From assembly GCF_054482525.1 (NCBI RefSeq), contig NZ_CM137006.1: a stretch of DNA of 64,000 nt. The stretch is one strand, 5' to 3'. The notes under the pieces are model-generated. The model was not told where the DNA came from, did not search any database, and saw only the letters and a list, made by a program, of their open reading frames with translations. The first letter of the stretch is position 1, and the number at the start of each line of letters is the position of its first letter. Below, piece after piece: positions 6,201 through 34,619 of the stretch. Both the position numbers and the translations under genes were made by a program.

Positions 6201-6801
6201 CTTTGAATCGCAGTGGGAACCGGTGTTGACCGAGTGGATCACGGCTGTCCTCCAGGCACCTCTCAATGAAACGGGTGTTAGCCTGAGTCAGCTTTCCGAC
6301 CGCGATAAACAGGTGGAGATGGAGTTTTACCTGCCGATTAGTGAACCGCTCATCGCCAGCCAGCTTGATGCACTAATTCGCCAGTTTGATCCGCTATCCG
6401 CTGGCTGCCCGCCGCTGGAGTTCATGCAGGTACGCGGCATGTTAAAAGGCTTTATCGACCTGGTATTCCGCCACGAAGGGCGTTATTACCTGCTCGACTA
6501 TAAATCCAACTGGCTGGGTGAAGACAGTTCGGCTTACACCCAACAGGCTATGGCAGCGGCGATGCAGGCACACCGCTATGATCTGCAATATCAGCTTTAT
6601 ACCCTGGCGCTGCATCGTTATCTGCGCCATCGCATTGCTGATTACGACTATGATCGTCACTTTGGCGGCGTTATCTATCTGTTCCTGCGTGGCGTTGATA
6701 AAGAACATCCGCAACAAGGGATTTACACAATCCGACCCAACGCCAGGTTGATTGACCTGATGGATGAGATGTTTGCCGGTATGACCCTGGAGGAGGCGTA
6801 A
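3259..6801 (+). CDS. recB: RecBCD helicase/nuclease subunit RecB
   Basis: 1180 aa from ATG at 3259 (ORF track extends 3 codons upstream from a GTG); Walker A AGTGKT; overlaps ptrA stop by 8 nt and recD start by 1 nt. Confidence 0.95.
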
Positions 6802-8627
6802 TGAAATTGCAAAAGCAATTACTGGAAGCTGTGGAGCACAAACAGCTACGCCCGCTGGATGTGCAATTTGCCCTGACCGTGGCGGGAGATGAACATCCTG
6901 CCGTCACCCTCGCGGCGGCACTGTTAAGTCATGATGCCGGAGAGGGACACGTCTGTTTGCCGCTTTCACGACTGGAAAATAATGAGGTGTCGCATCCGCT
7001 GTTGGCGACCTGTGTCAGTGAAATCGGTGAGCTACAAAATTGGGAAGAATGCTTGCTGGCTTCACAAGCGGTCAGCCGGGGAGATGAACCAACGCCGATG
7101 ATCCTCTGTGGCGATCGTCTTTATTTGAATCGCATGTGGTGTAACGAGCGCACAGTGGCACGCTTTTTCAACGAAGTGAATCATGCCATTGAGGTTGATG
7201 AAGCTCTACTGGCGCAAACCCTGGACAAACTTTTTCCAGTAAGCGATGAAATTAACTGGCAAAAAGTTGCGGCGGCAGTGGCGCTGACGCGGCGGATCTC
7301 GGTGATTTCCGGCGGCCCTGGCACCGGTAAAACGACCACCGTAGCGAAGTTGCTGGCAGCGTTAATTCAAATGGCAGACGGCGAACGCTGCCGTATCCGT
7401 CTGGCTGCACCAACGGGTAAAGCTGCCGCGCGCTTAACCGAATCTCTCGGCAAGGCTTTGCGACAGTTACCGCTGACCGATGAACAAAAGAAACGCATTC
7501 CGGAAGATGCCAGCACTTTGCACCGATTGCTGGGTGCGCAGCCGGGTAGCCAGCGTTTACGTCATCATGCCGGTAACCCGCTGCATCTTGATGTGCTGGT
7601 GGTAGATGAAGCGTCAATGATCGATCTGCCTATGATGTCGAGACTGATCGACGCCTTGCCCGATCATGCGCGAGTGATCTTTCTCGGCGATCGTGATCAA
7701 CTGGCTTCGGTTGAGGCTGGGGCAGTGCTGGGCGATATCTGCGCTTATGCCAATGCCGGCTTTACCGCCGAGCGTGCCGGGCAGTTGAGCCGCCTGACGG
7801 GAACTCACGTTCCGGCAGGAACTGGCACAGAAGCGGCATCTTTGCGCGACAGTCTCTGCCTGCTGCAAAAAAGCTATCGTTTCGGCAGCGATTCTGGCAT
7901 TGGTCAGTTAGCTGCGGCGATCAACCGTGGTGATAAAACGGCAGTGAAAACCGTTTTTCAGCAGGATTTTTCTGATATCGAAAAACGGCTTTTACAGAGC
8001 GGCGAAGATTATATTGCGATGCTTGAGGAAGCTCTTGCGGGTTACGGACGTTATCTGGATCTGCTGCAAGCGCGTGCCGAGCCGGATTTAATCATTCAGG
8101 CGTTTAATGAGTACCAGCTTTTGTGCGCCCTGCGGGAAGGGCCGTTTGGCGTGGCCGGACTGAATGAGCGAATTGAGCAGTTTATGCAACAGAAGCGCAA
8201 AATTCATCGTCATCCGCACTCTCGTTGGTACGAAGGCCGACCGGTGATGATTGCCCGTAATGACAGCGCGCTTGGGTTGTTTAATGGCGATATCGGTATT
8301 GCGCTGGATCGCGGGCAGGGGACGCGCGTTTGGTTTGCGATGCCGGACGGCAATATTAAGTCTGTGCAACCGAGCCGCCTGCCGGAGCACGAAACGACGT
8401 GGGCGATGACGGTACATAAATCGCAGGGATCGGAGTTCGACCATGCGGCGTTGATTTTACCGAGCCAACGCACGCCGGTAGTAACGCGAGAGCTGGTTTA
8501 CACCGCGGTGACCCGCGCGCGTCGCCGTCTGTCGCTGTATGCCGATGAGCGCATATTAAGTGCGGCAATCGCCACGCGCACTGAGCGGCGCAGTGGTCTG
8601 GCGGCATTGTTTAGTTCGCGGGAATAA
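6801..8627 (+). CDS. recD: RecBCD helicase subunit RecD
   Basis: 608 aa; Walker [10 protein letters not shown]; start overlaps recB stop (TAATG). Confidence 0.95.
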
Positions 8628-8688: not shown

Positions 8689-10020
8689 TTACCCCAAATC
8701 CGCCATCAGCACTTTGGATTTACGCTGGTAGTTGTACAACTGCTTTTTGCTCTCGGGCAGTAAATCAATATCCACTGGGGTAAATCCACGTTCCTGGAAC
8801 CAGTGAATACTGCGCGTGGTCAGCACAAACAATTTGCTTAAGCCGCTCTGCTTCGCCTGAGCGGCAATGCGTTCCAGCAGAACCTCGCCCCGTGATGAAC
8901 TGCGGTAATCCGGGTGAACTGCCACACAGGCCATTTCCCCAATCTTCTCTTCCGGGAACGGATAGAGCGCGGCGCAGGCAATAGTCGTGTTATCGCGCTG
9001 AATAATGGTGAATTTGTCGATTTCCATCTCCAGCTGCTCGCGAGAACGGCGTACCAGAATACCTTGCTGCTCCAGCGGGCGAATCAACTCCAGAATACCG
9101 CCAATATCGTTGATTGTTGCGCGACGAATCTGCTCGGCGCTTTCCATCACAATCTGCGTACCGATACCGTCGCGTGAGAACAACTCTTGCAACAGCGCGC
9201 CATCTTCCTGATAACTGATTAAATGACAGCGACGCACGCCGCTGCGGCAGGCTTTCACTGCGCCACGCAAAAAGCGCACCGTACCGGAGTTGTAATCACC
9301 TTTCTCTTCCTGGGCTTCTACCCGCGCTTGCGCTTCGTTAGGGAAAAGTTCGGAGACAATATCACCGTCGTCATTAGTGACGCCCTGGGAAGAGCAAAAA
9401 CCAATCATCTTTTCAGCTTTCAGTTTGATGGCCAGTTGAGTGGCAATCTCTTCCGAGGTCAGATTAAAGCTCTCGCCAGTGACTGAAACAGCGACCGGCC
9501 CCATTAGCACTATTGCACCGCTGTCCAGTTGACGATGGATCGCGTCTTCATCAATCCGCCGGATACGCCCGCTATGGCAGTAATCCACGCCGTCATCGAC
9601 GCCCAGCGGCTGGGCAATAATAAAATTGCCACTGACGACGTTGATATGTGCGCCCTGCAGCGGCGTGTTATTGAGACTCATCGACAGGCGAGCAGTAATA
9701 TCCAGTTGCAATGTTCCCGCAGCCTGCTTCACCAGTTCCAGTGTTTTGGCGTCGGTCACACGTATATTCTTGTGATACAGCGGTTCGTGGTGATGCGCAG
9801 CCAGATTTGCGTCGATCTGCGGACGTGCGCCATAGACCACCACCAGACGGATGCCGAGGCTGTGCAACAACCCGATATCATTAACGATACTGGAGAAATT
9901 CTCATGCTCAATGGCTTCACCGCCGAGCATGATGACAAACGTTTTTCCCCGGTGGGTATTGATATAGGGAACCGAATGGCGGAATCCCTCGACCAGCTCG
10001 GTTTTACGTTCCTTTACCAC
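8689..10020 (-). CDS. argA: N-acetylglutamate synthase (arginine biosynthesis)
   Basis: 443 aa counted from a GTG start ([11 protein letters not shown]...); ORF track shows a longer in-frame extension that is probably not translated; amino-acid kinase-like N-terminal region plus GNAT C-terminal region. Confidence 0.92.
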
Positions 10021-10030
10021 GGCACACCCC

Positions 10031-10066
10031 TTTGCATGATTATTCGAAATTATTGTATTTTTATTC
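10031..10066 (-). promoter_or_regulatory. Putative ArgR operator (two ARG-box-like TGNAT...ATTC palindromes) just upstream of argA
   Basis: AT-rich palindromic sequence TGCATGATTATTCGAAATTATTGTAT resembling the ARG box consensus; read by eye. Confidence 0.3.
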
Positions 10067-10251
10067 TGTTTTTTCGCGGGGTGCAAGTGTAAATTTTATG
10101 CGAGAGCGACTTTTTTATCAGTAATGCCGTGAATATAAAAAGAATGTTTACCGTTTATTAGATGACAGATTATGCGTCTTTCGCTAAAGTTTCCGGTCAA
10201 ATTAGTCGTTTACTTGTTACACAGCTTAGATTTCTTTTACTCGGGAGAGGC

Positions 10252-11505
10252 ATGTCAGGATCCAACACTGCAATCAGCCGTCGTCGTTTACTGCAAGGCG
10301 CGGGTGCCATGTGGCTATTGAGCGTAAGTCAGGTCAGTCTGGCTGCGGTCAGCCAGGTCGTGGCGGTGCGCGTCTGGCCTGCGTCCAGCTACACCCGCGT
10401 GACGGTGGAATCAAATCGTCAGCTGAAATATAAGCAGTTCGCGTTGAGTAACCCGGAACGCGTGGTGGTGGATATCGAAGATGTAAACCTGAACTCGGTA
10501 CTCAAGGGGATGGCGGCACAAATTCGTGCAGACGACCCGTTCATCAAGTCGGCGCGCGTCGGGCAATTTGACCCGCAGACCGTACGCATGGTTTTTGAAT
10601 TAAAGCAAAACGTAAAACCGCAGCTGTTTGCCCTTGCGCCGGTCGCTGGGTTTAAAGAGCGTCTGGTGATGGACCTCTATCCGGCCAATGCACAGGATAT
10701 GCAGGACCCGCTGCTGGCGCTGCTGGAGGATTACAACAAAGGCGACCTCGAAAAGCAGGTGCCGCCAGCACAAAGTGGTCCACAACCGGGTAAAGCAGGG
10801 CGCGATCGTCCTATTGTCATTATGCTTGACCCTGGCCACGGTGGCGAAGACTCCGGTGCGGTGGGGAAATACAAAACGCGCGAAAAAGACGTGGTATTAC
10901 AAATAGCTCGCCGTCTGCGCTCTCTGATCGAGAAAGAGGGCAATATGAAGGTGTACATGACGCGCAATGAAGACATCTTCATTCCGTTGCAAGTGCGCGT
11001 AGCAAAAGCCCAGAAACAGCGTGCCGACCTGTTTGTCTCTATCCATGCCGACGCCTTTACCAGTCGCCAGCCGAGCGGTTCCTCAGTGTTTGCGCTCTCA
11101 ACCAAAGGCGCAACCAGTACTGCGGCAAAATATCTGGCACAAACCCAGAACGCCTCGGACTTGATTGGTGGCGTGAGCAAAAGCGGTGACCGCTATGTCG
11201 ACCACACCATGTTCGATATGGTGCAGTCGCTGACCATTGCCGACAGCCTGAAGTTTGGTAAAGCGGTGCTGAATAAGCTCGGTAAAATCAACAAGCTGCA
11301 TAAAAATCAGGTTGAACAGGCCGGGTTTGCCGTACTAAAGGCACCAGATATTCCCTCCATTCTGGTCGAAACGGCGTTTATCAGTAACGTTGAGGAAGAA
11401 CGTAAACTGAAAACGGCGACTTTCCAGCAGGAAGTTGCGGAGTCTATTCTTGCGGGGATTAAAGCGTATTTTGCCGATGGGGCGACGCTGGCGAGAAGGG
11501 GATGA
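10252..11505 (+). CDS. amiC: N-acetylmuramoyl-L-alanine amidase AmiC
   Basis: 417 aa from ATG at 10252 with GGGAGAGG Shine-Dalgarno; twin-arginine signal peptide ([11 protein letters not shown]); amidase_3 C-terminal domain. Confidence 0.9.
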
Positions 11506-11508
11506 TAA

Positions 11509-11536
11509 AAAGGCGCTGAATGGCGCTTTTTTTATG
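11509..11536 (+). terminator. Putative amiC terminator (A-run, GCGC stem, T7 run)
   Basis: aaaaaGGCGCtgaatgGCGCttttttt directly after amiC stop; stem is short. Confidence 0.4.
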
Positions 11537-11548
11537 GGAGACCAGAAA

Positions 11549-11571
11549 CAAAAAAACACCCGTTAGGGTGT
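11549..11571 (-). terminator. Putative terminator of the tRNA-fMet operon
   Basis: On the minus strand ACACCC-taac-GGGTGT hairpin followed by U7 run, immediately downstream of the last tRNA copy. Confidence 0.6.
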
Positions 11572-11579
11572 TCAATAAT

Positions 11580-11656
<77 letters not shown>

Positions 11657-11688
11657 TCACCGTACTGCTTTATTTCATCAAATTTGAT

Positions 11689-11765
<77 letters not shown>

Positions 11766-11798
11766 TCACCGTACTGCTTTACTTCATCAAATTTTAAT

Positions 11799-11875
<77 letters not shown>

Positions 11876-12083
11876 TCCGTGGATGCGCACTATACTCCGC
11901 TCGCGTTTTCATGCAACCTTTTTTTTACCCCGATCACGGATTCGGCATGATTTTGAACAAAAACAAATCACTAAAGCCTATTTTTTGTGCAAAATTTGCG
12001 TCAGGGAGAGGCTGCTCATTTCATTAAACGCGGCGGTTTGTTATCTTCGTTGCGCCTTATTTTTTAACCTGAAGAAGAGAACA

Positions 12084-13181
12084 ATGAAAGGACGTTGGGT
12101 AAAGTACCTTCTTATGGGCACGGTTGTGGCAATGCTTGCCGCCTGCTCTTCCAAACCAACCGATCGCGGACAGCAATATAAAGACGGGAAATTTACCCAG
12201 CCTTTCTCTCTGGTGAACCAGCCAGATGCCGTTGGCGCGCCGATTAACGCCGGTGATTTTGCCGAGCAAATTAACCATATCCGTAATTCGTCACCGCGTC
12301 TGTATGGCAACCAGAGTAATGTTTATAACGCGGTGCAAGAGTGGCTGCGCGCAGGCGGTGATACCCGCAATATGCGCCAGTTCGGCATTGATGCCTGGCA
12401 GATGGAAGGTGCCGACAACTATGGTAACGTGCAGTTTACAGGCTATTACACGCCGGTAATTCAGGCGCGCCATACCCGCCAGGGCGAGTTCCAGTATCCT
12501 ATTTACCGTATGCCGCCAAAACGTGGTCGTCTGCCGTCTCGTGCGGAGATCTACGCGGGGGCATTGAGCGATAAATACATCCTCGCTTACAGCAACTCCC
12601 TGATGGATAACTTCATTATGGATGTGCAGGGTAGCGGGTATATTGACTTTGGTGATGGCAGTCCGCTTAACTTTTTCAGCTATGCAGGGAAAAACGGTCA
12701 TGCATATCGCAGCATTGGTAAGGTGCTGATCGACCGTGGCGAAGTGAAAAAAGAAGATATGTCGATGCAGGCGATTCGTCACTGGGGCGAAACACACAGT
12801 GAAGCCGAGGTTCGCGAGCTGCTGGAACAGAACCCGTCTTTCGTCTTCTTTAAACCGCAATCTTTTGCACCGGTGAAAGGGGCAAGTGCGGTGCCGCTGG
12901 TTGGCCGTGCTTCTGTTGCCTCCGATCGTTCAATTATTCCGCCAGGTACTACCTTGCTGGCAGAAGTGCCGCTGCTGGATAATAACGGCAAATTTAACGG
13001 TCAGTACGAATTGCGTCTGATGGTGGCGCTGGATGTCGGTGGCGCAATCAAAGGCCAACACTTCGATATCTATCAAGGGATCGGGCCGGAAGCCGGGCAC
13101 CGCGCAGGTTGGTACAACCACTATGGACGTGTCTGGGTGCTGAAAACGGCTCCGGGCGCAGGTAACGTCTTTAGCGGCTGA
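12084..13181 (+). CDS. mltA: Membrane-bound lytic murein transglycosylase A (lipoprotein)
   Basis: 365 aa from ATG at 12084; lipobox LAACSS; ORF track extension upstream overlaps the tRNA genes and is spurious. Confidence 0.92.
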   Translation: MKGRWVKYLLMGTVVAMLAACSSKPTDRGQQYKDGKFTQPFSLVNQPDAVGAPINAGDFAEQINHIRNSSPRLYGNQSNVYNAVQEWLRAGGDTRNMRQFGIDAWQMEGADNYGNVQFTGYYTPVIQARHTRQGEFQYPIYRMPPKRGRLPSRAEIYAGALSDKYILAYSNSLMDNFIMDVQGSGYIDFGDGSPLNFFSYAGKNGHAYRSIGKVLIDRGEVKKEDMSMQAIRHWGETHSEAEVRELLEQNPSFVFFKPQSFAPVKGASAVPLVGRASVASDRSIIPPGTTLLAEVPLLDNNGKFNGQYELRLMVALDVGGAIKGQHFDIYQGIGPEAGHRAGWYNHYGRVWVLKTAPGAGNVFSG

Positions 13182-34449: not shown

Positions 34450-34619
34450 GACTCTGTAGGAGATCGCCAGGAAATAAGCGAATACTTAAAAAGATAAGAA
34501 TCGTTATTTTCATTTAAAATCAATATATTGCTTGTTAATCCTTAACTTTCATATGAAATTTTCCTTAAGGCATTGTCTGTAAGCGCCTTGTAAGACTTCG
34601 CGAAAAAGACGATTCTATC

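Follow-up and report, generated by a model that had tools for sequence, protein, structure and literature searches.

The argA upstream region that we analysed in a 64,000-nucleotide stretch of DNA (hereafter the window) is a canonical, textbook feature of Escherichia coli, which has been annotated and characterised already and is not new. The best explanation of the sequence, to which we give a probability of about 0.93, is the canonical argA control region with a GTG-initiated 443-aa ArgA and an ArgR-repressed sigma-70 promoter. In what follows, the start codon and the operator are read directly from the letters and from their conservation, while the promoter is placed by its spacing to the operator, and ArgR binding and repression are taken from the literature.

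The window derives from an E. coli chromosome, and positions 10021-10160, to which the preliminary description referred, correspond to the region upstream of argA, on the minus strand (argA-sense sequence ...ACACTTGCACCCCGCGAAAAAACAGAATAAAAATACAATAATTTCGAATAATCATGCAAAGGGGTGTGCCGTGGTAAAGGAACGTAAAACC...). A 401-nt query around this region was 100% identical to strain PCN033 and was present in 5425 of the 5426 complete E. coli genomes, with the annotation argA/amiC. The gene order is recD (plus strand, 6801-8627), argA on the minus strand and amiC on the plus strand, divergent from argA, the whole being in the orientation opposite to that of K-12. The argA product is a bacterial N-acetylglutamate synthase (NAGS): full-length equivalog matches were obtained with NF003641 (754.9 bits, cut-off 344) and TIGR01890 (654 bits, cut-off 202.85), the domain architecture is AA_kinase (PF00696) plus GNAT (PF00583), and comparison with the NAGS structure PDB 2r8v gave E = 1.7e-90. 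The features of the control region are collected in Table 1.

Table 1. Features of the argA gene and its control region, in window coordinates.
Feature	Positions	Strand	Basis and remarks
argA CDS (N-acetylglutamate synthase)	8689..10020	-	ORF list and RefSeq K-12/PCN033; 443 aa plus stop (8689-8691)
argA initiation codon GTG	10018..10020	-	RefSeq annotation, conservation in 81 sequences, PMC8674398
Shine-Dalgarno AAGGGG	10027..10032	-	Sequence, K-12 alignment, SD:anti-SD -8.2 kcal/mol; AAGAGG in K-12
Gene-proximal ARG box TTCGAATAATCATGCAAA	10031..10048	-	3 mismatches to consensus; matrix score 13.3, rank 3
Inter-box spacer AAT, 3 bp	10049..10051	-	3-bp spacer in all 81 sequences; likely transcription start about here
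Promoter-side ARG box ACAGAATAAAAATACAAT	10052..10069	-	2 mismatches to consensus; matrix score 15.6, rank 2; holds the putative -10
Putative -10 element	10057..10063	-	TAAAAA (10063-10058, 17-nt spacer) or AAAAAT (10062-10057, 18-nt spacer)
Putative -35 hexamer TTGCAC	10081..10086	-	TTGCNN conservation; about 99% column conservation; first three bases are the TTG of the 465-aa ORF
A/T tract AAATTT	10090..10095	-	80-99% conserved at -75 to -70, just upstream of the -35 hexamer

In the mechanical ORF list argA appears as a maximal frame (8689..10086) which, as the preliminary description had pointed out, needs a TTG start to yield its 465 residues; the GTG start of the 443-aa protein had been preferred there. 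This preference is borne out. GTG is the argA start in RefSeq for both K-12 MG1655 (b2818, 2949242-2950573, 1332 nt) and PCN033, and it has been given as the native initiation codon in the literature (PMC8674398). We then compared the argA loci of 80 Enterobacterales species (89-99% protein identity), which together with the window made a set of 81 sequences. The homologous start position was occupied by GTG in 62 of these and by ATG in the other 19; three Erwinia-type loci begin GTG-AAG, one Val codon shorter, and so still start with GTG.

The competing possibility is that the 465-aa protein initiated at TTG (10086-10084) is the true ArgA, or an additional isoform. Both the window and the species representative of E. 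coli have an open frame between TTG and GTG, and a promoter-like sequence located further upstream (CTGATA-N17-TAAAAT, discussed below) could in principle give an mRNA containing the TTG. Against this, 68 of the 81 sequences had an in-frame stop in the 66 nt that precede the start codon (62 of them in the last 30 nt), and the spacing between boxes and start codon ranged from 49 to 53 nt, with frame-shifting indels whose length is not a multiple of 3. By this comparison the open frame is largely confined to E. coli and a few relatives. Codon periodicity begins only downstream of GTG: nucleotide diversity at codon positions 1, 2 and 3 was 0.048, 0.050 and 0.289 over codons 2-10 after GTG, while the same measure in the 66 nt between TTG and GTG gave 0.293, 0.223 and 0.183, without a coding signature. 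Pairing with the anti-Shine-Dalgarno sequence distinguished the two codons as well, the predicted duplex amounting to -8.2 kcal/mol for the 20 nt before GTG and to +1.6 kcal/mol, that is, no pairing, before TTG.

The protein comparisons point the same way. Positions 3-441 of NF003641 (441 positions) match residues 25-464 of the 465-aa ORF, which puts position 1 of the profile on residue 23, the GTG codon, and homology to the solved Neisseria NAGS structure starts at residue 31 of the long form, 8 residues after GTG. The 22 extra residues have no counterpart in the family profiles or in the solved homologue, and on these alignments the N-terminus of ArgA coincides with that of the family, in the 443-aa and not the 465-aa form; direct N-terminal protein data for ArgA were not found in the literature. 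Taken with the use of GTG by RefSeq and in the literature, and with the position of the TTG in a conserved -35-like hexamer (see below), these data make a 465-aa ArgA extremely unlikely. The TTG form is an artefact of the ORF caller, a by-product of an accidentally open frame.

Translation from GTG would be served by the AAGGGG Shine-Dalgarno sequence that had been noted earlier and that is indeed present at 10032-10027, separated from the start codon by the 6-nt spacer TGTGCC; the resulting peptide begins M/V-VKERK. A GAGGG/AGGG block is conserved at this position in the alignment, and the first 2 nt of the Shine-Dalgarno sequence overlap the gene-proximal ARG box. The 19 species with an ATG start belong to Enterobacter, Lelliottia, Klebsiella, Raoultella and Salmonella enterica subsp. 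arizonae (loci L017-L019, L021, L023-L025, L027-L032, L035, L038, L039, L046, L051 and L054 of our set), GTG being used in the others. GTG has been termed an inefficient codon for ArgA that limits its translation, and ArgA has been cited as a member of the 'polyamine modulon' (PMC8674398). The start codon may tune ArgA translation by lineage.

The second element of the control region is the operator. The preliminary description had placed ARG-box-like palindromes within about 50 bp upstream of the start codon, and two 18-bp boxes were found there, together spanning -49 to -11 from GTG. With the consensus WNTGAATWWWWATTCANW and up to 3 mismatches, 15 sites were detected in 64 kb against 8.2 expected, and the promoter-side box was the only 2-mismatch site in the window. 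An ArgR matrix was then used, a symmetrised 18-bp matrix derived from 18 boxes of nine other K-12 operators (carA, argF, artJ, artP, argG, argR, argD, argE/CBH and argI), from which argA was left out so that no circularity arises. The argA boxes took ranks 2 and 3 among the approximately 64,000 positions of the window, their scores lying within the range of the training boxes (8.6-22.9). Taken singly the boxes were not significant, as 24.5% of random first-order Markov 64-kb sequences reached 15.6. The tandem score of 28.9 was the maximum of the window and was reached by none of 400 random 64-kb sequences (mean 11.7, SD 3.0, maximum 22.1).

The best single matrix match in the window was AGGGCATTATCATTCATT (1201-1218, score 16.5), which has no phased partner; single-box matches are therefore uninformative. 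A tandem ARG-like pair, TTTTCATTTAAAATCAAT-AT-ATTGCTTGTTAATCCTTA, was also observed at 34507-34544, with a 2-bp spacer and a score of 22.7 (12.0 + 10.7), about the maximum of the 400 random 64-kb sequences. It lies in A/T-rich DNA adjoining syd and could be either a chance occurrence in such DNA or a weak ArgR site.

Conservation of the argA pair was examined in the same 81 sequences. The tandem boxes were present in all 80 other species, with scores of 24-33, always with the 3-bp spacer and at -49 to -53 relative to the start codon. The core GAATAAAAATACA of the promoter-side box and the motif CGAATAA were conserved at about 99%, while the adjacent non-coding DNA, the promoter spacer and the sequence further upstream were variable. 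The argA pair thus has the motif match, the 2-3 bp spacing (about 21 bp centre to centre, which puts both boxes on one face of the helix) and the conservation of an Enterobacterales ArgR operator.

Could these boxes be no more than A/T-rich promoter DNA with a chance likeness to the consensus? The frequency with which random 64-kb sequences reach the single-box scores would allow it, and so would the imperfection of the palindromes: a search of 10000-10270 (6-nt seed for an exact inverted repeat) returned no direct or inverted repeat, the ARG boxes being palindromes too imperfect to be detected by self-complementarity. A chance resemblance is nevertheless at odds with a tandem score, at the exact 3-bp spacer, that no random sequence attained, with a pair kept in all the other species while the flanking DNA diverges, with its position before the first gene of arginine biosynthesis, and with in vivo occupancy that depends on argR at this very place (PMC8282354). 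This explanation is effectively refuted already.

The span that had been outlined earlier, 10021-10160, holds up only in part. Both boxes lie within it, at 10031-10069, but the remainder, 10070-10160, contains only a weak ARG-like half-site, CGTGAATATAAAAAGAAT (10128-10145), 59 bp upstream of the operator, which is not conserved and whose score of 6.2 is below those of all 18 training boxes. This half-site is probably why the span had been extended to 10160.

The argA (b2818) control region of K-12 is the same locus. In an alignment of 276 nt, to which the window contributed 271 nt, mean column identity was 98%, and in K-12 the boxes and their 3-bp spacer are placed alike, argA starts with GTG and amiC diverges from it. 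The K-12 boxes, again at -49 and -28, scored 15.3 and 13.3. Three single-base differences between the window and K-12 concern regulatory elements, namely position 17 of the first box (A in the window, C in K-12), the Shine-Dalgarno sequence (AAGGGG in the window, AAGAGG in K-12) and the promoter spacer (C in the window, T in K-12); none of them alters the reading.

A putative sigma-70 promoter can be placed relative to the operator. The motif TTGCNN preceded the first box by exactly 11 nt, without gaps, in 79 of the 81 sequences. In the window this hexamer, TTGCAC, has 3/6 matches to the -35 consensus, and a promoter built on it was not called by a consensus scan. Both candidate -10 elements sit inside the promoter-side ARG box, and the AAATTT tract is possibly UP-element-like. 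From the conserved hexamer and the fixed spacing we infer that transcription most likely starts around 10050 (10052-10049, in the inter-box spacer), which would give a leader of about 30 nt. A short leader with operator overlap, as had been proposed in the preliminary description, is the best-supported reading. The TTG with which the long ORF begins belongs to the putative -35 hexamer and would lie outside the mRNA on this reading. As another -10 candidate we considered TACAAT (10057-10052), which was rejected: it has 5/6 matches, but its spacer from TTGCAC would be 23 nt, only TACA is conserved and the K-12 sequence is TACACT.

A mapped main transcription start of argA was not found in the literature that we reached, including the supplements of Kim 2012, Ettwiller 2016 and Mendoza-Vargas 2009. 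The last of these supplements lists a start obtained by 454 sequencing as 'New antisense; intragenic region', at argA +469 (about 9550 in the window).

The consensus scan called a single promoter-like site on the minus strand, CTGATA-N17-TAAAAT (10121-10093), with 9/12 matches. If this were the main argA promoter, transcription would start around 10086, the leader would measure about 66 nt and ArgR, bound to boxes now downstream of the start, would act as a roadblock and not by excluding polymerase. Its TAAAAT overlaps the partly conserved A/T tract, for which an UP-like element serving the TTGCAC promoter is an equally good explanation. CTGATA and its surroundings showed 20-60% column identity, while TTGCAC and its distance from the first box hardly vary. 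Moreover, overlap of the boxes with the promoter is the arrangement described for highly repressible arg genes, and boxes lying downstream are reported as unusual (PMC6640053). We consider it improbable that the main argA promoter is located there. A weaker version combines this site with the long ORF: a minor upstream promoter (CTGATA-N17-TAAAAT, start around 10086) would give a longer, ArgR-roadblocked transcript and, from the TTG, a little of a lineage-specific 465-aa ArgA isoform. This we regard as highly unlikely.

The rest of the argA-amiC spacer was also inspected. An Rfam scan of 9500-12500 (E <= 1) returned only three tRNAs and one sub-threshold sRNA match, and no family in the spacer, hence no riboswitch or leader RNA family there; the RefSeq annotation of K-12 has no small ORF in it. 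A 12-nt block at 10145-10156 (plus strand TGTTTACCGTTT; argA-sense AAACGGTAAACA) is 90-99% conserved across Enterobacterales in variable surroundings. The annotated start of amiC is some 100 nt downstream of it, and the block may be an amiC promoter or a regulator site. amiC has been reported in the literature as CpxR-activated; we considered the GGTAAACA block (10145-10156) as a CpxR box, but the spacing of the pentamers does not fit GTAAA-N5-6-GTAAA.

Several frames of the ORF list on the amiC side also differ from the annotation. amiC itself is over-extended, beginning at ATG 10162 (447 aa) in the list, compared with 1254 nt (417 aa) from ATG 10253 in RefSeq, and it is the latter ATG that directly precedes the twin-arginine signal. 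Further on, three identical tRNA genes (11583-11875, minus strand, 61.4 bits each) correspond to the initiator tRNA-Met cluster annotated downstream of amiC in K-12 (metW, metV) and in PCN033. The peptide PDLNRRPSGYEPDELPGCSTPR recurs in the plus-strand ORFs that cover them (11620-11820, 11802-13181 and 11839-12027). These ORFs are either spurious or too long; the one beginning at 11802 probably over-extends the next gene.

The published data on ArgR agree with an operator at this position. Occupancy measured by IPOD-HR at the ArgR sites upstream of argA was weaker in arginine-poor medium and was gone in an argR deletion (PMC8282354), and the argA promoter has been described as ArgR-repressed and modelled with mutually exclusive binding of RNA polymerase and ArgR (PMC3658269). 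In the canonical ArgR operator a single hexamer binds two 18-bp boxes that are 3 bp apart, and the DNA is bent (PMC6640053, PMC4381063, PMC6245113). In geometry, carAB P2 of E. coli is the closest to argA, with two 18-bp boxes, a 3-bp spacer and, as in argA, a start 49 nt before the start codon; one ArgR hexamer binds there, and ArgR and RNA polymerase exclude each other (PMC6245113). The carAB P2 boxes partially overlap the -35 element and transcription from the upstream promoter P1 reads through them (PMC6245113), whereas at argA it seems to be the -10 element, the start of transcription and the leader that the boxes span, and the gene has no established tandem promoter. The operators of argF/argI, argECBH, argD, argG and argR share the motif and the 2-3-bp phasing with argA, but are situated 62-128 nt before their start codons, whereas that of argA abuts the Shine-Dalgarno sequence.

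The model that best accounts for this arrangement is as follows. A sigma-70 promoter would use TTGCAC (10086-10081) as its -35 element and TAAAAA or AAAAAT (10063-10057), inside the first ARG box, as its -10 element, with transcription starting around 10050, and the message is translated from GTG (10020-10018) by means of AAGGGG into the 443-aa N-acetylglutamate synthase. One arginine-loaded ArgR hexamer would occupy both boxes (10069-10052 and 10048-10031), covering roughly -19 to +20 of the promoter and ending 2 nt into the Shine-Dalgarno sequence. In this position ArgR would exclude RNA polymerase, and argA would be repressed when arginine is plentiful. Within this model we infer which -10 element is used, where transcription starts, how long the leader is and that polymerase is sterically excluded at the argA promoter.

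Beyond correct annotation these results have little significance: the 465-aa ORF is not to be used, and the residue numbering of ArgA, for instance in the feedback-resistant Y19C (PMC8674398), presupposes the GTG start. For ArgR matrix scans the locus offers a clean positive control, the phased pair being significant in 64 kb and the single boxes not. The 'alternative start' of the long ORF, being the putative -35 element of the gene's own promoter, is a warning for ORF-extension heuristics. Finally, the variation between GTG and ATG among genera, together with the published claim of a weak GTG, may interest metabolic engineers.
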